Of a DNA stretch of 55,849 nucleotides, positions 12,666 to 48,976 are shown in pieces. Under the pieces are notes generated by a model. It ran no database searches. It had not been told where the DNA came from and saw only the letters and a list, made by a program, of their open reading frames with translations. This DNA comes from Octopus sinensis. Its lineage: Eukaryota. Made by a program: the position numbers and the translations under genes. The DNA lies in assembly GCF_006345805.1 (NCBI RefSeq), contig NW_021833779.1, forward strand, positions 1-55,849, in the 5' to 3' direction. The number at the start of each line of letters is the position of its first letter. The stretch's first letter is position 1.

Positions 12666-12728
12666 AAATTACTCATCATTATTTTTTATCTTCAATCAAT
12701 TATTAATGTTAAAAAATTTGGAATATAG

Positions 12729-13025
12729 TTATACAGTGTAAGAAAAACTGATGGCAATCCTGTTTCCCCTCACTATTGCTTGGGACATGTTCTGGAGGAG
12801 CCATCTAGTCTCCAGAGGATTGTGTGTTCTCAAGGTCTTGAGACGTCCAATACACTTGAGAAAGCTCAACGACTCCTTCCCAATCGATCCCAGGGTTTCG
12901 ACAGCAACCGGCCAGAAAACGTAACGATCGGTGAGGCCATCATATTTCTTCTTCTTGATGTCCTCTGCTTTATCCGCAGCTGTGCCGGCATAGCAGGCAC
13001 TTTCCAACATGTTTGTCTTGGACAA
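12729..13025 (-). pseudogene. CRE-like non-LTR retrotransposon RLE/C-terminal remnant 1
   Basis: AGTAADKAEDIKKKKY...FWPVAVETLGSIG...LLQNMSQAIVRGN resembles the C-terminus of CRE-clade elements (motif recall). Confidence 0.7.
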
Positions 13026-13193
13026 GGATTCGGAACATGTTGAATCCCCCTCAGCATTATTAAAATTAAATATTTTTAAAATAATATTTTATTAGCACCA
13101 TCAAATAATTGTAACTATTGCTTAAATTGATGAATTTTGCGAGATTACAGACTAAATTACTAGTTAATCAATTAAACAAAAAGCAGAGAACGA

Positions 13194-13443: not shown

Positions 13444-13508
13444 TTATTTTGTATTTGTGTACTTAGTAACTGCCTTTGCACCTTCTGTAATAGCATGTTT
13501 TGCCAATT
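13444..13508 (-). pseudogene. H2B: H2B 3' fragment ([20 protein letters not shown]), 5' part deleted at the junction with LINE B1
   Basis: Matches 29905-29969. Short aatt microhomology with the B 3'UTR. Confidence 0.9.
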
Positions 13509-15932
13509 AATTTTGACGAGACGATTGCTTTGGGCATTCGAGCTCTTCCATGGTTCGTCCGCTTTGTCTGTCTATGAGCAGGGACACCTGCTATTCTCCA
13601 CGATCGATGAATAGGTCAGTTACTTTAGAGCGTTTCCGAAAAGTTCGGATAGAAGCCTCGATGGCCTGCCGTAGCTCTGGAGACTTGCTCTCCGCCCAGC
13701 TTGGGACAGGCTCCCATGGATTTAGCATATAGGCTAGTTTTAGAGCGTATCTCCGTATTTTTTCGCATTTTCGCAGAATTTTCTCATATTGTTTCGAGTA
13801 GAACCAAGCTTCCATACCATACAGTAGGCTGGGCAAGATTGTTGCATGGTATACAAATAGGAAGGTATTTGGATTCAAGTGCATGCTTCTTAGGAGTCGG
13901 AGAGCGGCGATGGCTTTCCCTTTTCTCCGTTTGAAATGCAAATGGTATCTCGAGTTTGCGTCGATTGTGAGCCCCAGGTAACGTATGCTCTCAGGGCGAG
14001 CAATTTCCACCAAAAGCCGGGTTTGCGATCTTGCGACTTTCTTGGGTTAATTTGGAGATATGCAGATTTGTCCATGGCCAGCGAGAGTCGCTTACCAATG
14101 CACCAATTCTTTATCTCCTCAATGTAGCCGGCAAGTCGTTTCTCCGAGGCATTGGTGTCCATCGAGGTGTCCAGAACGAGAACATCGTCCGCGTAGAGGA
14201 GTAGGGATGTCCTGGGATCGGAGGGTGTGGGGAAACTGCTCATTACCAAATTGAAAAAGATTGGGCTGAGACAGGACCCCTGTGGAACCCCCCTTCGGAG
14301 CGAAATATATCTTGAGAAGAAGCCCGACTCAGAGATAAAAGAGTAGCGATTTGAGAGGAAGCAGCGCATCCAGAGGAAGACTTCCGCTGTTGGCTCACAG
14401 AGTTCGATCCTTTCCAGGAGGTCTCTGTGCCAGACGCTGTCAAAAGCCTTTGAGATGTCCAGACTACAAGAGATAAAGTTTCTTTAAACTCCGTTGCTCT
14501 CGAGATGGTGGACTGTACCGTAATGAAACAGTCACCGCAGCTACGTCCAGAGCGAAAACCCCATTGCTGCGGGAGCAGCACTTTCTTCTCTTCGGCGTGG
14601 AAGTCGAGGCGCTTGGCCATAATTTTCTCCATCAGCCTTGAGATAGTTGGGATTAGGCTTATGGGACGGTAGCTGCTAGCGAGATTCACCGGTTTCGCAG
14701 GCTTTTTGATCATCCGGACCTCTGAGATTTTCCATTTTTCCGGCACATGGCCCCATTTGAGACTTGCCGTAAACAGATCCGCGAGGAACACATGTAGGTC
14801 TTCGGGTGCTTCCTTAAACAATCGCATCGGTATTTGTCATGGCCCGGTGCGTTGCCTTTTGACGAACGGATGGCCCAGGTCACCTCTGCAATGGTGATCG
14901 GGTGATGGTCCGGCGACAGTGGGCGCGGCAGTGGCTCCGACTCCCGGTTTTGCGACGTTTCCGGATTGGCCTCCTGGATAGTGGCCAGGTGTTCTGCAAA
15001 TATGTTTGGCATCTCTTGTGGCGAGGCGGGCATACCAGACTGGTTGCACAACCTCGGGGGTGAGGATTTTCCTTCGAGGTTAGCCACTTTGTGGAAACAG
15101 TCCCAGAAATTTGGGTTTCTGTAGTCCAGGTTTTGACAAGCCTTCTGCCATTCCTGGCTGCTTCCAGCTTTGTCGCGACGTGGATCTTATAACCAATTCC
15201 GAGATCATGTTCCTAAGTCTTCCCCTGTCAGCTGGGTCCACACAGCGTTTGAGTTTATTTCTCAGCCGCTTCCTTTCGTTGAGGATGATCTTCACTTTCA
15301 CGCTCAGAGTGGTCCTCCGTGCGCGGTCTGCACTTGACAATTCTCCGTACGACGTTAGATACTGAAGCATGAATTTGCTTAGCTTATCGCTTGCGGAGTC
15401 GATGTCGAGGGCTGAGTTATACCCAACAGGGCGACCGTTGTCGTGCAGGAATGCACTTATGGAGCTCCTGTAGTGTGGCCAGTTGATCTTTGAGAGATTG
15501 TAGTGAGAGGAAATGTGTTCTTGTCTAACAATGCTAGTGTGAATTTTGATCTCCATTGGTAGGTGGTCACTTCCGATATCGTCAAGGACTGTAGGCTTTT
15601 CCATAAGGTTAGCGACAGAGTGAGAACAGATGCACAGGCACAGGTTGTCCCCGCCAAAGGCGAGTGGTGGTTCGGGTCTTCGGATGTCCTGACGAAAACA
15701 CCAAGCTTGTCAGTGACCTTCTTCAGTGTTCGACCATCTTGGTTGGTTAACCGACATCCAAACGCCGTGTGCTTCGAGTTTAAGTCTCCGATAAGAAGGC
15801 AATGAGCTGTGCTTGAGAAGAATTCGTCAATCAATCTGATGCAGGGGGGGAGATATTTGCAATATTTCCACCGACCTTATCCAGAAGGAATCAGTTTTCA
15901 CCTCAAGAGAGAGGAATTCGCACACCGTGCTC
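13509..15932 (-). mobile_element. LINE B copy B1, 5'-truncated in the endonuclease, 3' tail deleted
   Basis: RT motifs (GVPQGSCLSP, YADD). Near-identical to B2-B4. Confidence 0.92.
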
Positions 15933-15952
15933 CAGAAGGAATTTGTATGTCC

Positions 15953-18444
15953 GAACGAACGAACGAAGAATTTTATTGTAAGAAAGAAGAGCGAGACAGA
16001 AAATTAGTGCGGAAGTAATTTTGACGAGACGATTGCTTTGGGCATTCGAGCTCTTCCATGGTTCGTCCGCTTTGTCTGTCTATGAGCAGGGACACCTGCT
16101 ATTCTCCACGATCGATGAATAGGTCAGTTACTTTAGAGCGTTTCCGAAAAGTTCGGATAGAAGCCTCGATGGCCTGCCGTAGCTCTGGAGACTTGCTCTC
16201 CGCCCAGCTGGGACAGGCTCCCATGGATTTAGCATATAGGCTAGTTTTAGAGCGTATCTCCGTATTTTTTCGCATTTTCGCAGAATTTTCTCATATTGTT
16301 TCGAGTAGAACCAAGCTTCCATACCATACAGTAGGCTGGGCAAGATTGTTGCATGGTATACAATAGGAAGGTATTTGGATTCAAGTGCATGCTTCTTAGG
16401 AGTCGGAGAGCGGCGATGGCTTTCCCTTTTCTCCGTTTGAAATGCAAATGGTATCTCGAGTTTGCGTCGATTGTGAGCCCCAGTAACGTATGCTCTCAGG
16501 GCGAGCAATTTCCACCAAAGAGCCGGGTTTGCGATCTTGCGACTTTCTTGGGTTAATTTGGAGATATGCAGATTTGTCCATGGCCAGCGAGAGTCGCTTA
16601 CCAATGCACCAATTCTTTATCTCCTCAATGTAGCCGGCAAGTCGTTTCTCCGAGGCATTGGTGTCCATCGAGGTGTCCAGAACGAGAACATCGTCCGCGT
16701 AGAGGAGTAGGGATGTCCTGGGATCGGAGGGTGTGGGGAAACTGCTCATTACCAAATTGAAAAAGATTGGGCTGAGACAGGACCCCTGTGGAACCCCCCT
16801 TCGGAGCGAAATATATCTTGAGAAGAAGCCCGACTCAGAGATAAAAGAGTAGCGATTTGAGAGGAAGCAGCGCATCCAGAGGAAGACTTCCGCTGTTGGC
16901 TCACAGAGTTCGATCCTTTCCAGGAGGTCTCTGTGCCAGACGCTGTCAAAAGCCTTTGAGATGTCCAGACATACAAGAGATAAGTTTCTTTAAACTCCGT
17001 TGCTCTCGAGATGGTGGACTGTACCGTAATGAAACAGTCACCGCAGCTACGTCCAGAGCGAAAACCCCATTGCTGCGGGAGCAGCACTTTCTTCTCTTCG
17101 GCGTGGAAGTCGAGGCGCTTGGCCATAATTTTCTCCATCAGCCTTGAGATAGTTGGGATTAGGCTTATGGGACGGTAGCTGCTAGCGAGAGATTCACCGG
17201 TTTCGCAGGCTTTTTGATCATCCGGACCTCTGAGATTTTCCATTTTTCCGGCACATGGCCCCATTTGAGACTTGCCGTAAACAGATCCGCGAGGAACACA
17301 TGTAGGTCTTCGGGTGCTTCCTTAAACAATCGCATCGGTATTTTGTCATGGCCCGGTGCGTTGCCTTTTGACGAACGGATGGCCCAGGTCACCTCTGCAA
17401 TGGTGATCGGGTGATGGTCCGGCGACAGTGGGCGCGGCAGTGGCTCCGACTCCCGGTTTTGCGACGTTTCCGGATTGGCCTCCTGGATAGTGGCCAGGTG
17501 TTCTGCAAATATGTTTGGCATCTCTTGTGGCGAGGCGGGCATACCAGACTGGTTGCACAACTCGGGGGTGAGGATTTTCCTTCGAGGTTAGCCACTTTGT
17601 GGAAACAGTCCCAGAAATTTGGGTTTCTGTAGTCCAGGTTTTGACAAGCCTTCTGCCATTTCCTGGCTGCTTCCAGCTTTGTCGCGACGTGGATCTTATA
17701 ACCAATTTCCGAGATCATGTTCCTAAGTCTTCCCCTGTCAGCTGGGTCCACACAGCGTTTGAGTTTATTTCTCAGCCGCTTCTTTCGTTGAGGATGATCT
17801 TCACTTTCACGCTCAGAGTGGTCCTCCGTGCGCGGTCTGCACTTGACAATTCTCCGTACGACGTTAGATACTGAAGCATGAATTTGCTTAGCTTATCGCT
17901 TGCGGAGTCGATGTCGAGGGCTGAGTTATACCCAACAGGGCGACCGTTGTCGTGCAGGAATGCACTTATGGAGCTCCTGTAGTGTGGCCAGTTGATCTTT
18001 GAGAGATTGTAGTGAGAGGAAATGTGTTCTTGTCTAACAATGCTAGTGTGAATTTTGATCTCCATTGGTAGGTGGTCACTTCCGATATCGTCAAGGACTG
18101 TAGGCTTTTCCATAAGGTTAGCGACAGAGTGAGAACAGATGCACAGGCACAGGTTGTCCCCGCCAAAGGGCGAGTGGTGGTTCGGGTCTTCGGATGTCCT
18201 GACGAAAACACCAAGCTTGTCAGTGACCTTCTTCAGTGTTCGACCATCTTGGTTGGTTAACCGACATCCAAACGCCGTGTGCTTCGAGTTTAAGTCTCCG
18301 ATAAGAAGGCAATGAGCTGTGCTTGAGAAGAATTCGTCAATCAATCTGATGCAGGGGGGGAGATATTTGCAATATATTCCACCGACCTTTATCCAGAAGG
18401 AATCAGTTTTCACCTCAAGAGAGAGGAATTCGCACACCGTGCTC
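15953..18444 (-). mobile_element. LINE B copy B2, 5'-truncated, AATAAA + (TTCG)n tail
   Basis: Flanked by atttgtatgtcc at 15941-15952 and 18453-18464. Confidence 0.92.
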
Positions 18445-18464
18445 CAGAAGGAATTTGTATGTCC

Positions 18465-20947
18465 GAACGAACGAACGAAGAATTTTATTGTAAGAAAGAA
18501 GAGCGAGACAGAAAATTAGTGCGGAAAGTAATTTTGACGAGACGATTGCTTTGGGCATTCGAGCTCTTCCATGGTTCGTCCGCTTTGTCTGTCTATGAGC
18601 AGGGACACCTGCTATTCTCCACGATCGATGAATAGGTCAGTTACTTTAGAGCGTTTCCGAAAAGTTCGGATAGAAGCCTCGATGGCCTGCCGTAGCTCTG
18701 GAGACTTGCTCTCCGCCCAGCTTGGGACAGGCTCCCATGGATTTAGCATATAGGCTAGTTTTAGAGCGTATCTCCGTATTTTTTCGCATTTTCGCAGAAT
18801 TTTTTCATATTGTTTCGAGTAGAACCAAGCTTCCATACCATACAGTAGGCTGGGCAAGATTGTTGCATGGTATACAAATAGGAAGGTATTTGGATTCAAG
18901 TGCATGTCTTAGGAGTCGGAGAGCGGCGATGGCTTTCCCTTTTCTCCGTTTGAAATGCAATGGTATCTCGAGTTTGCGTCGATTGTGAGCCCCAGGTAAC
19001 GTATGCTCTCAGGGCGAGCAATTTCCACCAGAGAGCCGGGTTTGCGATCTTGCGACTTTCTTGGGTTAATTTGGAGATATGCAGATTTGTCCATGGCCAG
19101 CGAGAGTCGCTTACCAATGCACCAATTCTTTATCTCCTCAATGTAGCCGGCAAGTCGTTTCTCCGAGGCATTGGTGTCCATCGAGGTGTCCAGAACGAGA
19201 ACATCGTCCGCGTAGAGGAGTAGGGATGTCCTGGGATCGGAGGGTGTGGGGAAACTGCTCATTACCAAATTGAAAAAGATTGGGCTGAGACAGGACCCCT
19301 GCGGAATCCCCCTTCGGAGCGAAATATATCTTGAGAAGAAGCCCGACTCAGAGATAAAAGAGTAGCGATTTGAGAGGAAGCAGCGCATCCAGAGGAAGAC
19401 TTCCGCTGTTGGCTCACAGAGTTCGATCCTTTCCAGGAGGTCTCTGTGCCAGACGCTGTCAAAAGCCTTTGAGATGTCCAGACATACAAGAGATAAAGTT
19501 TCTTTAAACTCCGTTGCTCGAGAGATGGTGGACTGTACCGTAATGAAACAGTCACCGCAGCTACGTCCAGAGCGAAAACCCCATTGCGCGGGAGCAGCAC
19601 TTTCTTCTCTTCGGCGTGGAAGTCGAGGCGCTTGGCCATAATTTTCTCCATCAGCCTTGAGATAGTTGGGATTAGGCTTATGGGACGGTAGCTGCTAGCG
19701 AGATTCACCGGTTTCGCAGGCTTTTTGATCATCCGGACCTCTGAGATTTTCCATTTTTTCGGCACATGGCCCCATTTGAGACTTGCCGTAAACAGATCCG
19801 CGAGGAACACATGTAGGTCTTCGGGTGCTTCCTTAAACAAATCGCATCGGTATTTTGTCATGGCCCGGTGCGTTGCCTTTTGACGAACGGATGGCCCAGT
19901 CACCTCTGCAATGGTGATCGGGTGATGGTCCGGCGACAGTGGGCGCGGCAGTGGCTCCGACTCCCGGTTTTGCGACGTTTCCGGATTGGCTCCTGGATAG
20001 TGGCCAGGTGTTCTGCAAAATATGTTTGGCATCTCTTGTGGCGAGGCGGGCATACCAGACTGGTTTGCACAACTCGGGGGTGAGGATTTTCCTTCGAGGT
20101 TAGCCACTTTGTGGAAACAGTCCCAGAAATTTGGGTTTCTGTAGTCCAGGTTTTGACAAGCCTTCTGCCATTTCCTGGCTGCTTCCAGCTTTGTCGCGAC
20201 GTGGATCTTATAACCAATTCCGAGATCATGTTCCTAAGTCTTCCCCTGTCAGCTGGGTCCACACAGCGTTTGAGTTTATTTCTCAGCCGCTTCCTTTCGT
20301 TGAGGATGATCTTCACTTTCACGCTCAGAGTGGTCCTCCGTGCGCGGTCTGCACTTGACAATTTCCGTACGACGTTAGATACTGAAGCATGAATTTGCTT
20401 AGCTATCGCTTGCGGAGTCGATGTCGAGGGCTGAGTTATACAACAGGGCGACCGTTGTCGTGCAGGAATGCACTTATGAGCTCCTGTAGTGTGGCCAGTT
20501 GATCTTTGAGAGATTGTAGTGAGAGGAAATGTGTTCTTGTCTAACAATGCTAGTGTGAATTTTGATCTCCATTGGTAGGTGGTCACTTCCGATATCGTCA
20601 AGGACTGTAGGCTTTTCCATAAGGTTAGCGACAGAGTGAGAACAGATGCACAGGCACAGGTTGTCCCCGCCAAAGGGCGAGTGGTGGTTCGGGTCTTCGG
20701 ATGTCCTGACGAAAACACCAAGCTTGTCAGTGACCTTCTTCAGTGTTCGACCATCTTGGTTGGTAACCGACATCCAAACGCCGTGTGCTTCGAGTTTAAG
20801 TCTCCGATAAGAAGGCAATGAGCTGTGCTTGAGAAGAATTCGTCAATCAATCTGATGCAGGGGGGGAGATATTTGCAATATATTCACCGACCTTTATCCG
20901 AAGGAATCAGTTTCACCTCAAGAGAGAGGAATTCGCACACCGTGCTC
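18465..20947 (-). mobile_element. LINE B copy B3, same truncation point as B1 and B2
   Basis: Flanked by atttgtatgtcc at 18453-18464 and 20956-20967. The repeat period is about 2.51 kb. Confidence 0.92.
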
Positions 20948-21114
20948 CAGAAGGAATTTGTATGTCCGAACGAACACGAAGAAGAATTTTATTGTAAGAA
21001 AGAAGAGCGAGACAGAAAATTAGTGCGGAAAGTAATTTTGACGAGACGATTGCTTGGGCATTCGAGCTCTTCCATGGTTCGTCCGCTTTGTCTGTCTATG
21101 AGCAGGGACACCTG

Positions 21115-23712
21115 CTATTCTCCACGATCGATGAATAGGTCAGTTACTTTAGAGCGTTTCCGAAAAGTTCGGATAGAAGCCTCGATGGCCTGCCGTAGCT
21201 CTGGAGACTTGCTCTCCGCCCAGCTTGGGACAGGCTCCCATGGATTTAGCATATAGGCTAGTTTTAGAGCGTATCTCCGTATTTTTTCGCATTTTCGCAG
21301 AATTTTCTCATATTGTTTCGAGTAGAACCAAGCTTCCATACCATACAGTAGGCTGGGCAAGATTGTTGCATGGTATACAAATAGGAAGGTATTTGGATTC
21401 AAGTGCATGCTTCTTAGGAGTCGGAGAGCGGCGATGGCTTTCCCTTTTCTCCGTTTGAAATGCAAATGGTATCTCGAGTTTGCGTCGATTGTGAGCCCCA
21501 GGTAACGTATGCTCTCAGGGCGAGCAATTTCCACCAGAGGCCGGGTTTGCGATCTTGCGACTTTCTTGGGGTAATTTGGAGATATGCAGATTTGTCCATG
21601 GCCAGCGAGAGTCGCTTACCAATGCACCAATTCTTATCTCCTCAATGTAGCCGGCAAGTCGTTTCTCCGAGGCATTGGTGTCCATCGAGGTGTCCAGAAC
21701 GAGAACATCGTCCGCGTAGAGGAGTAGGGATGTCCTGGGATCGGAGGGTGTGGGGAAACTGCTCATTACCAAATTGAAAAAGATTGGGCTGAGACAGGAC
21801 CCTGCGGAATCCCCCTTCGGAGCGAAATATCTTGAGAAGAAGCCCGACTCAGAGATAAAAGAGTAGCGATTTGAGAGGAAGCAGCGCATCCAGAGGAAGA
21901 CTTCCGCTGTTGGCTCACAGAGTTCGATCCTTTCCAGGAGGTCTCTGTGCCAGACGCTGTCAAAAGCCTTTGAGATGTCCAGACATACAAGAGATAAAGT
22001 TTCTTTAAACTCCGTTGCTCTCGAGATGGTGGACTGTACCGTAATGAAACAGTCACCGCAGCTACGTCCAGAGCGAAAACCCCATTGCTGCGGGAGCAGC
22101 ACTTTCTTCTCTTCGGCGTGGAAGTCGAGGCGCTTGGCCATAATTTTCTCCATCAGCCTTGAGATAGTTGGGATTAGGCTTATGGGACGGTAGCTGCTAG
22201 CGAGATTCACCGGTTTCGCAGGCTTTTTGATCATCCGGACCTCTGAGATTTTCCATTTTTCCGGCACATGGCCCCATTTGAGACTTGCCGTAAACAGATC
22301 CGCGAGGAACACATGTAGGTCTTCGGGTGCTTCCTTAAACAATCGCATCGGTATTTTGTCATGGCCCGGTGCGTTGCCTTTTGACGAACGGATGGCCCAG
22401 GTCACCTCTGCAATGGTGATCGGGTGATGGTCCGCGACAGTGGGCGCGGCAGTGGCTCCGACTCCCGGTTTTGCGACGTTTCCGGATTGGCCTCCTGGAT
22501 AGTGGCCAGGTGTTCTGCAAATATGTTTGGCATCTCTTGTGGCGAGGCGGGCATACCAGACTGGTTGCACAACCTCGGGGGTGAGGATTTTCCTTCGAGG
22601 TTAGCCACTTTGTGGAAACAGTCCCAGAAATTTGGTTTCTGTAGTCCAGGTTTTGACAAGCCTTCTGCCATTTCCTGGCTGCTTCCAGCTTTGTCGCGAC
22701 GTGGATCTTATAACCAATTCCGAGATCATGTTCCTAAGTCTTCCCCTGTCAGCTGGGTCCACACAGCGTTTGAGTTTATTTCTCAGCCGCTTCCTTTCGT
22801 TGAGGATGATCTTCACTTTCACGCTCAGAGTGGTCCTCCGTGCGCGGTCTGCACTTGACAATTCTCCGTACGACGTTAGATACTGAAGCATGAATTTGCT
22901 TAGCTTATCGCTTGCGGAGTCGATGTCGAGGGCTGAGTTATACCCAACAGGGCGACCGTTGTCGTGCAGGAATGCACTTATGGAGCTCCTGTAGTGTGGC
23001 CAGTTGATCTTTGAGAGATTGTAGTGAGAGGAAATGTGTTCTTGTCTAACAATGCTAGTGTGAATTTTGATCTCCATTGGTAGGTGGTCACTTCCGATAT
23101 CGTCAAGGACTGTAGGCTTTCCATAAGGTTAGCGACAGAGTGAGAACAGATGCACAGGCACAGGTTGTCCCCGCCAAAGGGGAGTGAGTGGTGGTTCGGG
23201 TCTTCGGATGTCCTGACGAAAACACCAAGCTTGTCAGTGACCTTCTTCAGTGTTCGACCATCTTGGTTGGTTAACCGACATCCAAACGCCGTGTGCTTCG
23301 AGTTTAAGTCTCCGATAAGAAGGCAATGAGCTGTGCTTGAGAAGAATTCGTCAATCAATCTGATGCAGGGGGGGAGATATTTGCAATATATTCCACCGAC
23401 CTTTATCCAAAAGGAATCAGTTTTCATCTCAAGAGAGAGGAATTCGCACACCGTGCTCTCGATGATGGTGAGGTTACGGATTTGGAGGTTTTCGGCGTAG
23501 AAGATGCTCGAGCCAGTCCCTGGCGTAGAGCAGCTTCCCCATTTTAGATCCTCTGACCGGTAGCCCGGAAGTTCGTACGAGTGGTTTTCTTTGAGCTTAG
23601 ACTCGTTGACGACAATAATGTCTGGATGGCCGCTGTTTACCATCTCAACGAAGTCCTGGTGCCGTCTCTTGATAGATCGGGCATTCACAGCTATGATTTT
23701 GACTGGGGCTAT
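21115..23712 (-). CDS. LINE B ORF2 (APE + RT), fragmented by indels; no AUG at the expected start
   Basis: IIAVNARS, VNESK, IGDLNSKH, GSDHLP, LDISKAFDSV, YADD. Confidence 0.88.
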
Positions 23713-24990
23713 GTTGCTGGCGTGCTCCCCTCTAATAGGAGCCGTTGCAGCACCTCAGGTTCCACACCAAGTTTGGTTAGAGCTCCCACACAACGATGAA
23801 AGAATTCCATAAGGGAGTCTCTGTTGTGCAGGTCTTCGTCCGAGAGGGCACCTCTTTGCGATGAGATATTGTCTGGAGGGGTGTTTGTCTTCTTGCGAGC
23901 AGCAGCCGTGCGGCCAGCTCTGGTACTGGAACAAGTGTCAGCCGTCGGCTTCGGGTCGAGTTTAAAATCAAAGTCGGAGTCCGCCGATGTCTGAATGCAG
24001 ACATCAGTCTTGATCGGATTCACAACTGGCCTCTTTGTCCAGATCGACTCTGTGCGTTCGGCTTTCACCCAGCGAGCTGGGTTGCTGGCCGGCGGATTTC
24101 TCACAGCCCGTAAGGCTGCAGACGCGGCTTTGGCGAATGGGCATCCACCGTAACATGCCCAGTGTCCAGGACTGTTGCAGTTTATGCAGGTCTTGACAGC
24201 AGGGTCATTTGGTCTGGGGTCTGAGTTCGGACACACTATTGTGTCGGTGTTCGCCACAGACCAAGCAACGAACTTTTTCGGTGCACTTATGGGACGTGTG
24301 TCCAAATTGGTGACACCGAAAGCATCTGACTGCCGGGGGCTTGTGCCATTCACATCGGATATGGCTGAAGCCCGCAGTTATTCCAAAGCGGATGAGGGTG
24401 TTGGCCTCTGCTCTGGAATCCAGGGTGAGTCTGCCGACAGGCATGTCTGTTCCATTGCGAGAGAATCTTTCGAACTTGAAGTCCGATTCTAGACTTTCTC
24501 TCAAGTGGAGGTTAAGATCCTCTGTCGAGATCCAATGAGGGATTCCTTTAAGGATCAAGACTGAGGCCTTCTCAGCTATTGAGGCAAGTTTATGGCCGCC
24601 TTCGCCAAACATATTCGATTGAGTCAGCTCTGCTTTGAACGCAGCAGCATCCTCGGGCGATCTGAATTTTAGAATGAAGGTGCCGGACTTCTGCAAAGTT
24701 ATCCGAGCTTGGAGAGGCAGTTAGCGACTTGGATAGGAGGTTAAACCTCTTGATCTTTCCAAGCGTCGGGTTTTCAATACTCAAGGAATATGTGAGGGTC
24801 TCATGGGGTGGGTCTCACTCTGTTTTTGGGGCCCAGTAGGCTTCGGCAGTTCTGTGGGATCCTCAGCTTTGATTGGTTCACAAAAGGGCTGTGGCTTTGC
24901 CGCTGTTCGTCTTTGAGCTTTGGCGCAAGCTTTGATTGATGAGAGATTTTGATTATTCTTGACCATTTTTTCTTTCTTTTCCTTGACCAT
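23709..24990 (-). CDS. LINE B ORF1 (gag-like, CCHC knuckles), fragmented by indels
   Basis: Collinear with the intact ORF at 46452-47753. CFRCHQFGHTSHKC and CINCNSPGHWACYGGC knuckles. Confidence 0.87.
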
Positions 24991-25050
24991 GATATTCAAT
25001 CCGATATTCAATCCGATATTCAATCCGATATTCAATCCGATATTCAATCC
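24991..25050. repeat. 5 x 12-bp perfect tandem repeat (gatattcaatcc) directly 5' of the B4 ORF1 ATG
   Basis: Five exact units counted in the sequence. Confidence 0.97.
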
Positions 25051-25076
25051 TGTATAATTTATCCACCAAATCCGTA
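25051..25076 (-). other. 26-nt exact copy of the H4 3' end (YGFGG-stop + 8 nt of UTR) inside the B4 TSD
   Basis: tgtataatttatccaccaaatccgta = 479-504. Confidence 0.93.
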
Positions 25077-25106
25077 TTTGTATGTCCTTGGAGAAAAAAC
25101 ATTATA
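25076..25106 (-). promoter_or_regulatory. Residual H2B 5' leader/TATA-like segment, the insertion site of B4 and A4
   Basis: atttgtatgtccttggagaaaaaacattata versus atttgtatgttccggaggggaaaaacattata at 30276-30307, upstream of H2B. Confidence 0.8.
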
Positions 25107-28100
25107 AGTTAAGGGAGTTAAAAACTAACTAAGTAGACCTTCGGCATCGCTGCCTTTTCAGTCTCCATCTCACACACGCCTCCCTACACACAACCACAGG
25201 TTAAGACTTACCGCCTTTACCTGCCATCCAGAAATAATCTTCTCTAGGACCTCAGAGAGGCCTTTGAGAGATGATTCCTGGGCGTCGGAGAGCTCAGTCC
25301 GGAATCCTAAGCCATAGGCTAGCCTTATGGCTCGTCTTCTTACTTTTTTAAGCACGTCAACATGCTTATCCCTGTCCTCATAGAGGTACCAAGCGTGGAC
25401 GCCATAGGTCAAGACGGGTAACACCATGGCGTTAAACACGCGGAACCAGGCACCTCTGCTCAAGCGGAAAGCACGCAACGCACCTAATCGCTGCATTGCA
25501 CGCATTTTCGTACGTGCAATGTGATCATCAAACTTACCGGACGGCTTAAAGAGCACGCCCAAATAAGTCATCCGATCAACTGCAGCGATTGCTGACCCGC
25601 TCAGCAATAACCTAGGAACAAAATTAGTGTAACCCCTCGTCCTTTTACAGACTTTAAGGACACTGCACTTGTCCGCGCACATTCTCAGACCCTACTCCCA
25701 CACCAGTTTGCAAGTCCATCCACAGCAACCTGAAGCCTACGACACGCACACTCCGGTTTCATGAGTGATCCCAGAGGATAATGTCGTCTGCATAGATTAC
25801 CATTTCAGTACGAGCATTGACTGGCATAGGCGCAGTGGCCATAAACACATTGAATAGTAGTGTCGGACTGAGCACAGAGCCCTGAGGGACCCCGCGAAGG
25901 ACTGTTGCGACTTTAGAAAAGACCCCCTGATGCCGCACGACCTGCCTGCGAGATTCAAGAAACCCCGACAGCCAGCGCCTTAGACACGGAGAAACCCCAC
26001 ACGTGGCAAGGGAGCTCCGGAGGCCGTCGTGCCACACCGAGTCAAAGGCCTTTTCAATGTCGAGACTAACTAAAATACCGCATTCCCTTTTCTGGAGGGC
26101 GTTCTTCATACCAGACGACACCTTGTGAAGGCAGTCCCCGCATGAGCGGCCCTCCCTGAAGCCCCATTGGAACTCAGGGAGGGCGTCTGCAACCATCAGC
26201 TCCTCCAGGAGCCTTTGGTGCATAATTCTTTCTAGGATTTTAGATATTGCGGGGAGCAAGGAAATGGGCCTATATCCCCCGGGGACATCATGTGGCTTCC
26301 CGGGCTTTCCGATAAGGATTACCTCAGCCACTTTCCACCTGGAGGGAATCATCCCAAGTCGCAAGCTCCCGTTAAATAAAACCTTTAGTGCAGTGATTAA
26401 CCGCGGCGGGGCCTTCTTAAAGATGGCCATCGGGATCCGATCCAAACCCGCCGCGGTGTTTCTTACTTCGGGAGATTGCTGCCAGAATCTCCGCTTCAGT
26501 AATTTCGCCTGCATCGTCCTTGATATGCCCAGCTGGCAGCGCTTGTCCCACGACAATATCTGCTGGACAGTATCAAAGGACGATGTCTCTACGAACTGAC
26601 TTCCGTCAGTTCCCGAGATGCCATTGAGATGGGCTGAAAGTATTTCAACCACCTCAACCGGGTCCGAAGCGAGGGTTCCATCAGAGCGTTTAAGGCGCAC
26701 TGACTTAGCCCCCTTCTCCCCGACAGGCTCTTCAACTGCTTCCAGAAGTCCGGAAAGCGAGGGTCCACCCTTCGGCATGCCCTCTCCCACCGCGAACTTT
26801 CGAGTTCGCGGATTTCTCTTCGGATCTCCCTCTGAAGCCGGCTAATCCAGCCACGAAACCAAACACGGTTCTCCTCGTAAACGCATTTGTCCCGTAGTCT
26901 GGATAGCCGGCGCTTGAACCTAATTTTATTTAAGATCCGGTGAGGGAGCGTGGAATGTGCCTGACCCTGCACTGAGTTTTGTTTGAAATTATCTCGCATG
27001 TAATCAGTCAGGGCAGCATTGATTCCATTATCAAGCGCCTCCAACTCACGTATGTTGGCGCAGGTATTCCCCACCAGAAGTGAGGGCAACCTGCTGGCCA
27101 TGAAACTCTCCAGGTTAGCCCAGGAACCCACCCGGAGGTCAAAGTATCCTGGGACCCTTTGAGGAACTGGCTCACGGAGTTCGTGCAATAGAGGCAGATG
27201 GTCGCTCCCAATATCGGACAATAAAATAGTTTTACTAACCCAATTTAGAAGACCGGGACTGACCAGAGCAAGCCCTAGCCAGTCACGTCCTCCCCTCGCG
27301 TCGACGTGGTTTGGCTCGCTCGAAGTCCGGATTTCCAGCCCGAGGTCTTCAACCAGCGTCTTCAGAGCCAACCATGCGAGTTGGTTACCCTGAAACCAAG
27401 ATCTTGATGCTTGGCATTCAGGTCCCCAACAACCATGGCCTTCGGATGCTTTTCAAAGAACTCCCGTACGTGCCAGGAGCACGCCGTAAAGTTCTTCGAG
27501 TACATCCACCTAGGTAAAATGTTAACTCGCCTATGCGAATTCTCACTTGGAGGAATTCACACAAGCTACATGAACATATACCTGGACTCTGCAAGGCAAG
27601 GTAGGCTTGTAGTAGAGAGGCTAGTTCCTGTGCCACATATTGACCCCTGTTTCCAGGGTATGTGACGACAGTTGTAGCCATCAACTACGTACGGACCCCC
27701 TTTACCTTCGTTTCGTTGACCACCAGAATGTCCGCACTCGTGGTGGCCAACATCCTCTGAACGGCGTCCCTTTTTCCTTCCAAGGAACGCGCGTTCACCG
27801 ATATGATGTTGAGCATCATATCGGTTCTTCGCCAAGGATCTTCTTGGCCTCGGCAACGTTGCAGTGTAGCATTTCCTCTACACTGCAATTCATCTCCCTA
27901 CAAAATTTTAATAGGGAAACGCATAATTGCACCGCAGGACTAATACTGTCCTGCGGTACACGCTCGCCAGGGGCTGAGTGCAATGGCATCTCCACGTATG
28001 GAGGACGCCTTTTCAGCCCCAGGTTGTGCCGGACGGCGCCGACGTTAGCCGCCTCAGAAGGCATTGCCGGCTTAGGCAACCAAGCGGACTCGGAAGCTTT

Positions 28101-29640
28101 CACCTGCTTTGCCAACTTTGTCGGCGAAGGCTGCACCGACCCACACGTAGCATGGCTCACAGGTTCCACTGTCTTCGCCACCCAAACGGATTTGGAAGGT
28201 TTGGCCAGTATCGCCTGCTTGCCAGGTTTTGGCGCAGGGCGCGCGACGCGACGCGGGCGACTTACTGTTGGGATTACATCCCCACCTACCTTTCGGGTTG
28301 CCTCCTTGAACTTGGGGCAACCTCTGAAGTTGGCAGTGTGTCCCAACTTACCACAGTTGACACACTGCCTCTCCTTGGATGGTGAGGGGCACGTCTTGCG
28401 ACCATGCTCCCCACCGCAAATAAGGCACTTCGCCTTATCCGGGCACTTTGTGGAGATGTGCCCGAACCCCTGACACCGAAAGCATTGGGTGGCTTTCGGG
28501 CGGGGCCAGGCAGCTCTCATCCTAATGTAGCCGATCCTGGTACCAAGAAGTACCAGGCGCTCAGCTTCTGCAGGAGATCCCAGTGTAATCTCCACCACTT
28601 CAAGAGGGCGATTACCCTGCTTGAAGCGTGCAATGGCAGAGGCACTGGGGTACTCCTGCTGCAGATGACCTAGGAGGTCATTATCCTCGAAGTCCCGAGG
28701 AACCCCGAGGAGGAGGACACTTACCTTACTTACCTTACGTTCGATCCTGACAAGGCGATGCATGCCAGGACCGAACGGATTTGACTTCTTCAGCTCCCTT
28801 TGAAGTTGGAGAAGTCATCCTCCTTCTCCCACCCAAGCAGGAATTGGGTGGGCTCCCTCTTCAGGACTCTATACAGCTTTGAAGGCTGGATAGAGTCTAA
28901 CGTACCTAAGATCTTTATGACCGAGGCCTTCCCACTTGTAGGGAGGACCTCAAGTCGTGCCACAGCACCGAAGGTAATTCTGCCCCCGGCGCCAGTGGTC
29001 TTCTTTGGGTGTGCATCCGCCTGATCGGACACACACCCAGTACCTAAAACATTAGGGGGGTTGGACGGCCAGCCGCACGTTTGGGTTTCCCCACCGTGTA
29101 CCAACCGTCCTCAAGGGCAACCTTATTCCTGCCGTACCCACCGGGACGGCCTCAGGAGACGACACCTGTTGGCATTAATTGACTTACCTAGGCTGGGTTT
29201 GGTACCACTAGACAAACGCAAACACGTGGCGAACCAGCATGCTGTGCGGTTGTGGTGGATACCAAACGATCAGAAACCAGTTGCACCTGCAGCTCCCCCG
29301 ACACCAGCCATAGGGGGAGCAGAGGAAGAAGTGTCTCCAGTGAGTGCTGAACCCACCTGGGAGGGTCCAGGCTTCGACTTTCCTTCCTGCTTTCGCCTAG
29401 AAAATTAAAGACACCACTAGAATAGCCGGAAGCGCGTGGCGGTGAACCACGGCTCCGGCAATCATCGTAGTGGCACATGAACCGTCTTGTCCTTCTGGGA
29501 GAGCGAGGCGGGGACACCTCCACTTCTGCATAGTCTTCTAGTGCAGACAGCTTGCGAGCAGATTTTGCAGACAACTGTTCCTTGGTACTTTTGCACCAGT
29601 AGATTTTCGAGCCGTTTGTTTTGTTCTAGCCATATTTATT
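25107..29640 (-). mobile_element. LINE A copy A4, full-length, H3-head ATG at 29633
   Basis: Collinear with A2. Only about 7 nt of H3 leader is present, followed by H2B 3'-flank sequence. Confidence 0.93.
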
Positions 29641-29904
29641 GTTTTGCGAGAGAACGATCAGATCCCGGTCAAAAGAATAGCTTGCAAGTTGTCGCGCATG
29701 ATTGTAACCGAGATCCTTGTTTCAGCCAAGAAGATTCGCGTGCATACATGTTTTCCGAGCTATAAGGAGCCCGACATCTTTTAAGAACTGGATGTTGAGA
29801 AGGCTGCGGAGGTCTCGAATGGCAAAGGAACAATTACTAGTTAGATTTCGATTGTGTTGCAATAGTTATTTAGAGAACAAATGAATAAAAATATTTTTAA
29901 AGTG

Positions 29905-30265
29905 TTATTTTGTATTTGTGTACTTAGTAACTGCCTTTGCACCTTCTGTAATAGCATGTTTTGCCAATTCACCCGGAAGAATCAGACGAACTGCAGTCTG
30001 TATTTCACGTGAGGTAATGGTAGCCTTCGAATTCTGATAGACTAAATTTGAAGCCTCGGTTTTATTTTGTCATAAACATCGAATGTAAAACTGTCCATAG
30101 CCATCATAGCCTTCTTTGACATCCCAAGTTGATTATGTACTGTCTTTAAATTTTCATAAGATATCGAAAAAGTTTTCCTTTCTTTTTTTTCTTTGTAGCG
30201 ACGGAAACATTTTTTGTTTTAATGGGAGCTCTTTTTTGTCCTTTTGTGCTAACTTTAGGTGCCAT
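29905..30265 (-). CDS. H2B: Histone H2B (subtype 1; several small indels, error or pseudogene)
   Basis: Collinear with the intact H2B at 52388-52753. The promoter motif is at 30312-30337. Confidence 0.85.
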
Positions 30266-30480
30266 TATTAACAAAATTTGTATGTTCCGGAGGGGAAAAA
30301 CATTATATAATAAAAAAAGTATCATTCCGAATTTTTTGAGAGGAATAATTTGTAATAGTAGTAGTAATTAAATATTTCTTAATAAAATAAAACAATAAAG
30401 TAAAACGAGAGAAAGTTATAAATTAGTTAATGTCATGAGGAAATTATTATTATAATACATTCCGTAGGAAATTAACAAAG

Positions 30481-30730: not shown

Positions 30731-30972
30731 TTCTGACGTTTAGTCAGCAAGAGGCGCTAGACTGCACCTTCTCGAAGGTCTACAGTGCCAGAGAAGAAAA
30801 AGAGGAGGTGCGTGGAGTGCCACCTTCTGCTCACTTCGAAGGCTCTGGACTTAGTAAAATTACTTAGTTTCTTTTTTTAATAAAGCTAGTTAGTATATTT
30901 ATGAAATTGCTAATTTTTATCTGGTTAATTTGTAAGGAATATCAATGTATTTTATTAAAAAAAATGTATAAT

Positions 30973-31122
30973 TTATCCACCAAATCCGTAATTGTCCTAC
31001 CTTGACGTTTCAAGGCATTAACAACGTCCATTGCGATAACAGTTTTTCTTTTGGCATGCTCAGTGTAAGAAATACAATCACGAACAGTTTGCTCAATAAA
31101 AATCTTAAGGACAGAACGTGTC
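30973..31122 (-). pseudogene. H4: H4 3' half; the 5' half, promoter and all of H2A are deleted
   Basis: H4 sequence stops at gaacgtgtc and continues directly into the H2A 3' flank (attatttgaataatg). Confidence 0.9.
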
Positions 31123-37236: not shown

Positions 37237-37503
37237 AAATAATTCTCTAAATAAACATAATTATAAACAGATGCAAAAAAATAAAATATTAGAAAAAAAT
37301 AAATTTTTCCAACGATATAACTCTAATTTACTGTATAAATATACTTTTTGTTATTTCAACAAGATTTCTTACCAATTAAAAAAGCAATCGTAGTATTTCA
37401 CCGTCGTTTGGTAGCTAGTTAGTATATTTATGAAATTGCTAATTTTTATCTGGTTAATTTGTAAGGAATATCAATGTATTTTATTAAAAAAATTATGTAT
37501 AAT

Positions 37504-37812
37504 TTATCCACCAAATCCGTAAATTGTCCTACCTTGACGTTTCAAGGCATTAACAACGTCCATTGCGATAACAGTTTTTCTTTTGGCATGTTCAGTATAG
37601 GAAATACAATCACGAACAGTTTGCTCAATAAAAATCTTAAGGACAGAACGTGTCTCCTCGTAAATTTTTCCAGAAATTCTTCGAACACCCCCTCTTCGAC
37701 ATAGTCTTCTTATTGCTGGCTTAGTAATTCCTTGTATATTGTCAATTAATATCTTTCGAAATCGTTTTGCACCACTCTTTCCTCCTTTGCCACCTTTACC
37801 ACGTCCAGACAT
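37504..37812 (-). CDS. H4: Histone H4 (subtype 2)
   Basis: Protein identical to 487-795, with synonymous SNPs. Confidence 0.98.
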
Positions 37813-43503: not shown

Positions 43504-44874
43504 TTTGCTGGCGAGCTCCTCTCTGATAGGAGCTCTTCTAGCTTCTTGGGTTTGACTCCCAGTTTTCAGCTGCGTCGACACAGCGTTGGTAAAATTCCAA
43601 CAGAGCATCCTTGTTGTGAGAGTCTACCCTTCGCCTGCGTTTTGGCCTGCTGAGTACCGTTCCTTATTGGGCTGACGGGCCTCGGTTTCACAGCCTCGCG
43701 ACAGGGGCCTGCATGCTCTGCGCACCAACCTCAACGACTTGCGTCGTCTGGGTATGGGCGTCCGCCACACACGGGTTATTAGCGGCCGTACTTTCCAGAT
43801 AGGCGTGACCGGCTTAGCTTTTACCATTACCATGCGGGTTGGGTTAGGAGACCGAGGCATTGCTTCTGCGCGGGCGGCCCATTTAGCTGCTGTTGCAGCT
43901 TTGGCCGTCGGGCATCCACCATACGAAGCGAGGTGGCCGGGGCGGTCACAATTGATACAATGCCGACCGCAGGGCTCCACTAGACTTTGTTTGCTGCCTG
44001 GGCATTCCCTTCGGTCGTGGTCCTTGCCGCAGTATAAGACCGGGCTTTTTCTTGACAGTTACGGGACAGGTGTCCGAATCTCTGACAATGGAAACATCGG
44101 ACGACAGGAGGTCTGAACCATTCACAGGTGATAAGGCAGAAACCAGCTGTGATTCCGGTGCGGATCAAAGAAGTAGCTTCAGCTCGTGAGTCAAGCGTCA
44201 GCTTAGCAACTGGGATGTTGAGACCATCTCGCGTGAATCGCTCGAGAACGAACACCGAACTGAGGGTTTCCTTCAGGTGCAGCTCTAGGTCCCGATTGGA
44301 GATCCATCGCGGAATCCCCTTTAGGACTAGTGCTGACTTTTGCGGAGTAACTAAGGCAAGTTTATGGCCGCTTCGCCAAACGGGTTCAATCTTGCAAGCT
44401 CAGCCGAGAATGCATCAGCATCTCCGGGGCTCCTGAACTCAAGAGTGAAGGAGCCTGAGCGTTGTAATGTAATCCGTGCTTTGGAGGCAGTTGGCGACTT
44501 GGATAGGAGGTAAACCTCTTGATCTTTCCAAGTGCCGGGTTATTAATGCTCAGAGTGAATGTGAGGCCTGAGCTGTTAAGGTCAGACCTCGGGGGTTCGG
44601 TGGATTCTTCAACTTTGGAGGGCTCTCCTTGAACCATCTGGACCGTCGGAGCACCTCCACTTCGACATAGATTTCTTATTGCAGACAATTGTTCGGTGGA
44701 ATCTTCTTCAACTTTGATGGAAACATGTTGAACCGTCTGATCCGTCAGAACACTCCCACTTCGACATAGGTTTCTAATTGTAGACAATTGTTTCCTTGGA
44801 ACTTTTGTTCTTTTTTGTCCTTCAGTGTTTGCTTTTGCGTTTTCTTTTGAGTTTTTCTTAGGTGCCATTGACAT
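43500..44874 (-). CDS. LINE C ORF1 with an H2B/H3/H4 mosaic N-terminus (frameshifted downstream)
   Basis: MSMAPKK...[24 protein letters not shown]...QLSAIRNLCRSGG runs in frame into LSINNPALGKIKRF, which is shared with B ORF1. CCHC knuckles follow. Confidence 0.83.
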
Positions 44875-46303: not shown

Positions 46304-47759
46304 AATGAATGAATGAAGTTTATTGTAATTAACAGAGAAAGAGAAAGTGACAGGAATTAAGGACGGTGATAGGACGAGACTGATGCAAAGGCAACTGAAC
46401 TCTTCTGAGCTTGCGTCCAATTCATCTGTCGTGAGCCAGAGTTAATGGTGGCTATGTTGCTGAATTGCTCCCTTCTAGCAGGAGCTCTTGCAGCATATCC
46501 ATATCCACTCCAAGTAGGGTCAGGGCTCCTACACAACAGCGGAAGCATTCCAGTTGGGAATCTCTGTTGTGTAGGTCCTGATCCGAGTGGGGACCTCTTT
46601 GTGACAAAGCTTTGTCACTGTGGGTTTTTCTCCTCTTACGAGGGACAGCCGAGCGGACCACTTCTGAGTTATGGCACTCATTAGTGGTTGTCTTCGAGTT
46701 TGTGAGTGTGCTGGGGGCCGGCGACGTCTGAGTAGAGACATCGACTTTGGACGGACTTCGGGGAGCCGCTTTTGTCCAGACTGATTTTATCGGTTCGGCT
46801 TTCACCCAGCGTACTGGGCTTTTTGTCTGTGGGCTCTTCGCAGCCCTTGAGGCTGCTGTTGCTGCTTTGGCAGATGGACATCCACCGTAGCACGCCAAGT
46901 GCCCAGTGTTCTTGCAATTAATGCAAGTTTTTGCAGCTGGGACATTCGGTTTTGGCTTGGAACTCGGGCAGTTTTGGTGCCTGTGTTCTTTACCGCAGAG
47001 GAGACAACGGAGTTTTTCGGAGCATCTGTAGGACGTATGTCCAAACTGATTGCAACGGAAGCATCTCGTTGCTGAGGGCTTGTGCCATTCGCAGCGGATA
47101 TGGCTGAAGCCCGCAGTTATTCCAAAGCGGATGAGGGTGTTGGCCTCGGCTCTGGAATCCAGCGTGAGTCTGCCGATAGGCATGTCGGTTCCATTGCGAG
47201 AGAATCTTTCGAACTTGAAGTCCGATTCTAGACTTTCTCTCAAGTGGAGGTTAAGATCCTCTGTCGAGATCCAATGAGGGATTCCTTTAAGGACCAAGAC
47301 TGAGGCCTTCTCAGCTATTGAGGCAAGTTTATGGCCGCCTTCGCCAAACATATTCGATTGAGTCAACTCTGCTTTGAACGCAGCAGCATCCTCTGGCGAA
47401 CTGAATTTTAGAATGAAGGTGCCGGACTTCTGTAAGGTTATCCGGGCTTTCGAAGCAGTTGGAGACTTGGATAGGAGGTTAAACCTCTTAATCTTTCCAA
47501 GTGCCGAGTTTTCGATACTCAGAGAATATGTGAGGTTCGAGCTGTTACCCTCAGTTGTCGTCTGATGCAATTGGGTCTCACTGTGTTTTTGAGCCACAGT
47601 AGGGTTCGGAGGGGTCGGATGTTCGGTGGGATATTCAGGTTCGCAAAAGGGCTGTGGCTTGGCCGCTGTTCGTCTTTGAACTTTGGAGCAAGCTTTGATT
47701 GATGCGAGATTTTGTTTATTCTTGACCATTTTTTCTTTATTTTCCTTTACCATGCAACT
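46304..47759 (-). mobile_element. Non-autonomous ORF1-only LINE (B') with a 7-bp TSD and a (TTCA)n tail
   Basis: TSD gaaagtg at 46297-46303 and 47760-47766. The empty site is visible at about 36596 and 55012. ORF1 is followed directly by a B/C-like 3'UTR, AATAAA and the tail. Confidence 0.92.
46452..47753 (-). CDS. Intact B' ORF1, 433 aa from the ATG at 47753, three CCHC knuckles
   Basis: Uninterrupted ORF. The longer start in the ORF track lies outside the TSD, in the promoter. Confidence 0.9.
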   Translation of the reverse strand: MVKENKEKMVKNKQNLASIKACSKVQRRTAAKPQPFCEPEYPTEHPTPPNPTVAQKHSETQLHQTTTEGNSSNLTYSLSIENSALGKIKRFNLLSKSPTASKARITLQKSGTFILKFSSPEDAAAFKAELTQSNMFGEGGHKLASIAEKASVLVLKGIPHWISTEDLNLHLRESLESDFKFERFSRNGTDMPIGRLTLDSRAEANTLIRFGITAGFSHIRCEWHKPSATRCFRCNQFGHTSYRCSEKLRCLLCGKEHRHQNCPSSKPKPNVPAAKTCINCKNTGHLACYGGCPSAKAATAASRAAKSPQTKSPVRWVKAEPIKSVWTKAAPRSPSKVDVSTQTSPAPSTLTNSKTTTNECHNSEVVRSAVPRKRRKTHSDKALSQRGPHSDQDLHNRDSQLECFRCCVGALTLLGVDMDMLQELLLEGSNSAT

Positions 47760-48667
47760 GAAAGTGGAGTGAAAAAATCTCATATAATAAAAAAGTATCA
47801 TTCCGAAATTTTGTTGAGTAATTCAAAAAAAGTATAATTCCAAAATTTTTGAAGTTGACGGGATGACCCTTTTCCCATTTGAGAAAGGAAAAGGCCTCGT
47901 ATGGCATGCAAGCTGCTGGGATACTTTCTCTGCTTCACATCTAACCTCGTGTGCTCTGGAGGCTAAATCAGCTGCTAAAAAGCCTGAAGATTTAAAGCTT
48001 TCCAAATATTCTGCCCTTTTGGAATAAAATATCAAGAGGAATTCTGCAAGGGGACTCTTTGTCTCCACAGCTATTTGTTTTGGTGATGGATACTTTGAGT
48101 AGGATGTATTAATGTTTTAGTTATTATAACACATTCCGTGGGAACATAAACAAAGTTATAATCCCACACGTGTCACAAGCGAAACAATCTTCTGGACCAT
48201 CCTTGTCCATGCCCTTCTGTTGCGGGCGAGATCCCGTAAAGATTCTAGGTCGTCCCAGTTTTTGAAACTTTTGCCATGAAGTTTGAGATCCCTTTCAAGA
48301 ACTGTCGGAAGAGTGGATCTAGGTCTTCCACGATATTTGTCTCCATGTTCAAGAAATAATCGTCCATTGCCCGATTGGCCGGAGCTCTGGGGTCCACTCG
48401 CAAATAATTCTCTAAATAAACATAATTATAAACAGATGCAAAAAAATAAAATATTAGAAAAAAATAAATTTTTCAACGATATAACTCTAATTTACTGTAT
48501 AAATATACTTTTTGTTATTTCAACAAGATTTCTTACCAATTAAAAAAGCAATCGTAGTATTTCACCGTCGTTTGGTAGCTAGTTAGTATATTTATGAAAT
48601 TGCTAATTTTTATCTGGTTAATTTGTAAGGAATATCAATGTATTTTATTAAAAAAATTATGTATAAT

Positions 48668-48976
48668 TTATCCACCAAATCCGTAAATTGTCCTACCTTG
48701 ACGTTTCAAGGCATTAACAACGTCCATTGCGATAACAGTTTTTCTTTTGGCATGTTCAGTATAGGAAATACAATCACGAACAGTTTGCTCAATAAAAATC
48801 TTAAGGACAGAACGTGTCTCCTCGTAAATTTTTCCAGAAATTCTTCGAACACCCCCTCTTCGACATAGTCTTCTTATTGCTGGCTTAGTAATTCCTTGTA
48901 TATTGTCAATTAATATCTTTCGAAATCGTTTTGCACCACTCTTTCCTCCTTTGCCACCTTTACCACGTCCAGACAT
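48668..48976 (-). CDS. H4: Histone H4
   Basis: Intact 102-aa ORF. Confidence 0.98.

Follow-up and report, generated by a model that had tools for sequence, protein, structure and literature searches.

A histone H4-derived filler within the target site duplication of a LINE inserted at an H2B 5'-UTR target, possibly templated by H4 RNA

The window, the stretch of 55,849 nucleotides that was analysed, is the whole contig C10250 of the 2.7-Gb assembly G000. It harbors an array of H4, H2A, H3, and H2B genes that is riddled with the APE/RT LINEs A, B, C, and B'. A search with the RT for the LINE clade of these elements gave one match, which is unnamed. The features around the full-length B copy B4, together with the related genes and elements of the window, are listed in Table 1.

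Table 1. Positions of B4, its 5' junction, the H4 sequences matching the filler, and neighboring elements in the window.
Feature	Position	Strand	Remarks
5' TSD copy, 12 nt	25076..25087	(-)	one-base variant of the type-1 H2B 5'-UTR target, ~23 nt before the H2B ATG
H4-derived filler, 25 nt	25051..25075	(-)	matches H4 codons 98-102, the stop codon, and the next 8 nt (3' UTR) exactly; same sense as B4; 1-nt overlap with TSD
Five 12-bp repeats	24991..25050	(-)	constitutive 5' end of the B subfamily, immediately 5' of the ORF1 ATG
ORF1 ATG of B4	24990-24988		directly after the repeat array
B4, full-length APE/RT LINE	20968..25050	(-)	zinc-knuckle ORF1, endonuclease, RT, short tetranucleotide tail; dispersed copies are ~99% identical
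3' TSD copy	20956..20967	(-)	directly after the B4 tail
A element, full-length, H3 head	25088..29644	(-)	3' end adjoins the TSD; stacked on the same H2B site
Three 5'-truncated B copies	13505..20955	(-)	second insertion at the same target, amplified later; last copy breaks into H2B CDS
Type-1 H2B gene, 5'-UTR target uninterrupted	29905..30288	(-)	target motif 30276-30288
H4 ends matching the filler	479-504, 30965-30990, 37496-37521, 48660-48685		26 nt exact
Nearest matching H4 3' end	30965..30990	(-)	now 5.9 kb away; in its own unit ~680 bp upstream of the intact H2B target
Intact H4 gene, possible donor	48660..48976	(-)	other possible donors 479-795 and 37496-37812
B', ORF1-only relative	46304..47754	(-)	own head and tail; no control for B4

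In the sense of the element, the assembled order at the 5' end of B4 is a 12-nt TSD, a 25-nt H4 filler, five 12-bp repeats, and the ORF1 ATG. The first-pass annotation had described the same order, and all parts were found where it had placed them. The length of the filler had to be corrected: base 25076 is common to the TSD and the 26-nt H4 match, so that the filler proper comprises 25 nt. The 12-mer GGACATACAAAT at 25076-25087 is repeated at 20956-20967 behind the B4 tail and also occurs at 18453 and 15941. The foreign piece and B4, with its 3' tail intact, are enclosed by one TSD, and both TSD copies show the same non-canonical variant of the target. A chance origin of the H4 match was ruled out, since none of 2000 shuffled fillers matched the rest of the window over more than 15 nt, compared to 25 nt for the real filler. 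The 22-mer across the junction has a single occurrence in the G000 assembly.

Homology at the left junction was ordinary. As many as 1071 of the 9980 sites in the histone unit (10.7%) scored equally well, and homology-guided annealing at this junction was not significant. The 20 nt to the left of the TSD were dropped as a candidate H2B promoter, because the identical sequence terminates A copies at non-histone sites. Two independent DNA deletions, fusing the H2B start of one unit to the H4 end of the next unit and to B, are topologically possible but disfavoured, since both breaks would have to hit the TSD end and the element start exactly and since a rare variant is common to both TSD copies. 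An artefact of assembly or of a chimeric read on a low-coverage repeat contig has to be considered as well, as the junction is present on one contig only and the B copies differ mostly by small indels, which are typical of long-read consensus error. However, the borders of the piece lie exactly at the TSD end and at the first base of the element, the H4 match and the repeat array are error-free, and about half of the comparable junctions have fillers. We regard such an artefact as highly improbable.

Each of the four H4 ends of the window has, at its stop region, an exact match to 25051-25076. Exact matches to this H4 end in the assembly amounted to 33, all of which were inspected, and 25051-25076 was the sole one that continued into B. 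The filler maps to only one transcript class, H4. It ends 8 nt past the stop codon, while the AATAAA at +19, which is kept in 30 of 32 H4 genes, lies further downstream. Because of this end point upstream of the conserved AATAAA, the filler probably does not represent an mRNA end as in U6-L1 chimeras. A canonical-looking stem-loop was found neither by eye nor by folding. The H4 gene is intronless here, and the filler carries neither a splice junction nor poly(A). The H4 piece is templated, in sense orientation, and unique in G000, which supports its earlier description as a one-off addition inside the TSD. Most likely it is a dead-end scar, because it has no ATG, has a LINE rather than a promoter in front, and has left no offspring in the assembly.

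Another orphan 3' piece of H4 was seen on contig C12599. It is a genomic H4 that was cut off by the insertion of another element and not a filler: at the H4 stop lies, in antisense orientation, a short 3' fragment of a different retroelement that ends in an A8 tail and has a 10-11-nt TSD (G000:C12599:85443-85587, L183). The H4 3' UTR of this contig is interrupted again 12 nt past the stop.

The first-pass annotation had counted the 12-bp repeat as a second fresh addition and had itself treated a shared 5' end as an argument against capture. The repeat, a perfect array of 5.0 x 12 bp at 24991-25050, is present with 1 to 5 full units in eight of the nine related copies that reach the ORF1 ATG; the remaining copy is truncated at the ATG. 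Copies with the repeat include one that is only 88% identical to B4, and the upstream sequence differs in each. A captured origin of the repeat was rejected on this distribution, and with respect to the repeat the 5' end is indeed shared. The repeat is the B subfamily's own 5' end, and the H4 piece alone is the addition. Both are absent from B', as had been pointed out, but B' is a separate element (79% identical) with its own 5' head and can not serve as a control. In a B-related copy on another contig (G000:C9745; L015, L016), a 5' stretch resembles both the 12-bp repeat and the region upstream of H4. This hint, not significant alone, suggests that the repeat may have descended from an old H4 landing site.

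The TSD is derived from the H2B 5'-UTR, into which these LINEs have inserted repeatedly. The motif at 30276-30288, about 23 nt before the type-1 H2B ATG, is one base longer than the TSD, and it was also found behind the tails of B, B', C, and A on other contigs (C12441, C2287, C8677, C8884). One target in the window carries three stacked insertions, namely A, B4, and a truncated B that was later triplicated. Two intact-flanked junctions of the truncated copies were checked and have a common 8-nt filler matching B about 40 nt downstream.

We inspected 30 of 39 matches to the B 3' end, 27 of them outside the window. Twelve of these 27 enter histone gene sequence directly (11 upstream of an ATG and one in the H2A CDS), some of the twelve being segmental duplicates. 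Among 105 LINE 3' ends in 722 kb enriched for histone contigs, 46 were in sense orientation upstream of a histone ATG, one was sense in CDS, none was sense in a 3' UTR, three were antisense, and 55 were unmapped. Integration at histone gene starts is shown by these 3' ends, and the filler is unnecessary for it. The filler had been taken to imply integration where histone transcripts are concentrated; the integration into histone genes stands, but on the positions of the 3' ends and not on the filler. The non-histone targets of B were neither tRNA nor Rfam genes. Two such sites, both in dispersed non-coding repeats, are recurrent and were hit by B, C, and B' alike (L123, L124, L125, L130, L132, L139, and C and B' copies in L188-L230); neither is a tRNA or Rfam gene.

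The positions of the 3' ends also bear on a possible 5' transduction, by which a parent B in an H4 3' UTR would have been transcribed from the H4 promoter and its daughter truncated 25 nt into the H4 part. R1 elements of the melanogaster type take 7-28 nt of parent-site flank to new sites (PMC2718515), A carries histone heads to non-histone sites (C8901, C8697), and one B 3' end does lie within the H2A CDS. However, 0 of the 105 ends were sense in a histone 3' UTR versus 46 upstream of an ATG, no parent copy was present among the 33 H4 ends of the assembly, which may be incomplete, and the junction was found in no sister copy. A transduction of this kind appears improbable.

The survey of 5' junctions for histone-derived fillers that the first-pass annotation had proposed was carried out over 928 kb and covered 152 copies with an intact 3' end; a 5' flank was available for 143, the tail could be parsed for 134, and a TSD was called for 34. 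After removal of seven calls with 6-7-nt TSDs and merging of one duplicate, 26 events remained. Fillers of at least 6 nt beyond the family head were present in 12 of the 26 TSD-bounded insertions, with one further event being ambiguous, and a histone-transcript filler was present in one of the 26, B4. Since 12 of 26 events have a filler and B4 is the sole histone-transcript case, we concluded that junction fillers are routine in these LINEs and the histone-derived one is rare.

Tracing of filler sources also took in some junctions without TSD. Fillers were derived from the element itself (B truncations of the window, C9339, C10743, C7757), from target-flanking DNA (C8677:35820, C10118), or from an A-run (C1794). 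Each flank-derived filler that was traced had its source immediately adjacent to the target, and none had been copied from a distance of hundreds of bases. At G000:C8677:25911-25930 (L003), the B 5' repeat is preceded, in sense orientation, by a 19-nt segment of a CRE-like element that is widespread (window 12700-13058); this junction has a 6-nt overlap and no visible TSD. A scan of the 928 kb for short stand-alone histone transcript pieces revealed no second histone-transcript filler, and besides the B4 filler only target sites, heads, pseudogene pieces, and fixed mosaics were found.

One further insertion contains a different cellular sequence. At L227:4597-5759 (G000:C10696:43096-44258) the two copies of a 12-nt TSD (43096-43107 and 44247-44258) flank 358 nt of internal 18S rRNA, an inverted 5' part of B', and the B' 3' part together with its tail; a 1-nt overlap is seen, as at B4. 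This layout is as would be expected for twin priming in which a cellular RNA served as the extra template, and the 18S copy appears to be the clearest sign here of cellular RNA capture by this LINE system, although it could itself be DNA-templated, 18S pieces being dispersed in the genome.

We give a probability of about 0.5 to the reading that the H4 filler is a one-off templated addition for which the RT jumped onto H4 RNA at an internal site. Target-primed reverse transcription would have copied the full B RNA including the five repeats, and the RT would have run off the RNA end. The cDNA end would then have switched to an H4 transcript, either mRNA or nascent RNA, at a point immediately after the stop codon, and about 25 nt of H4 RNA would have been copied before the join to the upstream target end via the 1-nt overlap. 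Histone CDS accounts for 1446 bp of the plain histone unit of about 5100 bp. By a simple arithmetic estimate, a random local DNA template would yield sense histone CDS about 14% of the time (half for strand) and an RNA template always, so the sense exon sequence favours RNA. An RNA template is also favoured by the C10696 insertion, in which the same LINE system has enclosed internal 18S rRNA in its TSD. It is weakened by the lack of a splice junction or poly(A) in the piece, the H4 gene being intronless, and further because there is only one event in 928 kb and the 18S case is possibly DNA-templated. The proposal of the first-pass annotation, a jump of the RT to H4 mRNA or nearby H4 DNA after copying B, agrees with a one-off sense addition inside the TSD and with the 18S capture by the same system, but the repeat was no part of the jump. 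From the suggested likeness to U6-L1 chimeras the foreign sense piece inside the TSD is retained; the likeness is weak, since the piece ends at stop+8 upstream of the AATAAA and was not copied to the RNA 5' end.

Alternatively, nearby H4 DNA may have been copied. In this case the end of the cDNA, or else the upstream end of the target after elongation by the RT or by a repair polymerase of the host, would have invaded the neighbouring H4 gene, copied 25 nt, and returned. The H4 3' end and the H2B target are on one strand, with H4 about 680 bp upstream, so that a DNA template would also have produced a sense piece; the orientation is therefore not decisive. Copying of target-flanking DNA by other fillers (C8677:35820, C10118), the break of the H4 stop region on C12599 by another retroelement, and the end of the filler at stop+8, before the conserved AATAAA, are all consistent with a DNA template. 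In published systems, the 5' extra nucleotides of ZfL2-2 are described as largely flank-derived (PMC4245944), and R2 cDNA ends are described as sometimes priming on neighbouring rDNA (PMC11371274). Nevertheless, the traced flank fillers come from beside the target and none from hundreds of bases off, the nearest upstream H4 would be more than 5 kb away if A inserted first, and a random local template gives sense CDS only about 14% of the time. We consider copying of H4 DNA plausible but less likely than copying of H4 RNA.

A jump onto H4 RNA would also bear on the histone sequences carried by A and C. These two elements have a common old H3-to-H4 mosaic (H4 97-130, 85-88% identical), and histone 5' parts are joined to LINEs at no fewer than seven distinct junctions. 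The mobile heads begin in the 5' UTR and move to non-histone sites. An A copy at G000:C8901:253488-258023 (L208) has an H2B 1-76 head, and the fetched stretch contains no histone genes, which indicates that heads move with the element. At G000:C2287:13977-14183 (L093) the B 5' repeats are fused directly to H4 nt 105, near the start of the mosaic H4 (nt 97); the contig ends there, so that insertion and head are indistinguishable. Short non-autonomous elements consisting of degenerate tandem repeats and the last 120-160 nt of B or C were seen as well (L227:4270-4596; C6330, C12600, C12598, C8677, C9535), and one such element bears the first 55 nt of H2B.

The mobile heads would fit a jump to mRNA that was copied to the 5' end, but they would equally fit a DNA deletion or a gene-body insertion with read-through. 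Abrupt LINE-to-CDS junctions of opposite polarity were seen, and DNA deletions are thus common here. Gene-body insertions are scarce (one of 47 sense ends), and the route to heads by an mRNA jump is therefore still viable. The filler had been put forward as a direct mechanism for the mosaics in A and C. It illustrates a route but does not prove it, as a histone filler occurs in only one of 26 events and heads can also arise by DNA deletion with read-through. Tentatively, we propose that the LINEs dock at histone gene starts, where the RT may sample local histone mRNAs by switching to them at internal positions. Rare full jumps to the mRNA 5' end would yield the H2B, H3, and H4 heads and the H3-H4 ORF1 mosaics, and the 25-nt piece would be an aborted intermediate and the first histone-mRNA capture at a LINE junction.

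Taken alone, the B4 junction is a scar of a known type, one-off fillers being a known by-product of such insertion. Its value is that of a single data point on the possible acquisition of histone sequence by a LINE family whose insertions fall at histone gene starts. If it was RNA-templated, local transcripts at the integration site can serve as extra templates, and the origin of histone-headed ORF1 becomes testable by counting fillers.

The host of the contigs has to be considered as well. The H4 protein of the window is about 80% identical to ordinary H4s and 100% identical to part of a record named Octopus sinensis. Since an 18S rRNA piece on a related contig shares 96-99% identity with the copies of unplaced contigs but only 70-85% with those of the large chromosomes, the contigs with histone genes and LINEs most likely stem from a second organism sequenced with the octopus. 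An ant-labelled protein record (P0035), from a 2.3-kb contig, has an H4 that is 92% identical to the divergent H4 of the window; its source is possibly a related cobiont or contamination.

Published systems offer several comparisons. LINE-1 5' chimeras with small RNAs, rRNA, and mRNAs (U6/L1, U3/L1, 28S/L1, mRNA/L1) are mostly in sense orientation, and RNA ligation and trans-splicing are given as routes besides template switching (PMC11838501). Like them, B4 has host transcript sequence joined in sense to the 5' end of a near full-length LINE, one TSD, and no parent in the donor gene. Unlike those described there, the B4 piece is 25 nt of a coding-region 3' end without splice site, is non-recurrent, and does not reach the RNA 5' end (PMC11838501). 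Recurrence of the U6 type or a full-length RNA copy is absent, the 25 nt being found at one of 33 H4 ends and in one of 26 TSD-bounded events. In the open-access literature we found neither a histone-mRNA/LINE junction nor a histone-gene-targeting LINE; the 17 mRNA chimeras in the supplement of PMC11838501 could include a histone gene.

Insertions driven by R2 (PRINT) show 'snap-back' and 'extra template' junctions, the copy in the latter beginning at the RNA 3' end (PMC11371274). The B4 filler likely does not begin at an RNA 3' end and in this respect would differ from the 'extra template' junctions as defined there. For ZfL2-2 and ZfL2-1, 5' extra nucleotides at LINE insertions were reported (PMC4245944). 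As in ZfL2 and R2/PRINT, B4 has a short templated addition between TSD and element, and such additions are frequent here (12/26). In contrast to the templates reported for these systems, the template at B4 is another gene within the repeat unit and not the immediate flank or U6 (PMC4245944, PMC11371274). It lies neither in the immediate flank nor in the element end, the nearest H4 being 5.9 kb off and about 680 bp off in an uninterrupted unit.

R1 elements of the melanogaster group show rearrangements at the insertion site in which the TSD encloses 16-27 nt of the host array (PMC2718515). B4 resembles them as an APE-type LINE in a multicopy host gene array with a 25-26-nt host-array piece, within the range of 7-28 nt. 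According to the data given for R1, the usual upstream target flank is carried recurrently, whereas the B4 piece is unique, is not the usual flank, and has no parent site that was found (PMC2718515). Tx1 families and SINEU have snRNA-derived heads, which are attributed to template switching and are heritable (PMC4494074). Unlike the heads described there, the H4 piece of B4 never became a head, having no promoter or reading frame to offer. If RNA-templated, it shares with them a 5' addition derived from host RNA, and this likeness bears on the histone heads of A and C (PMC4494074).
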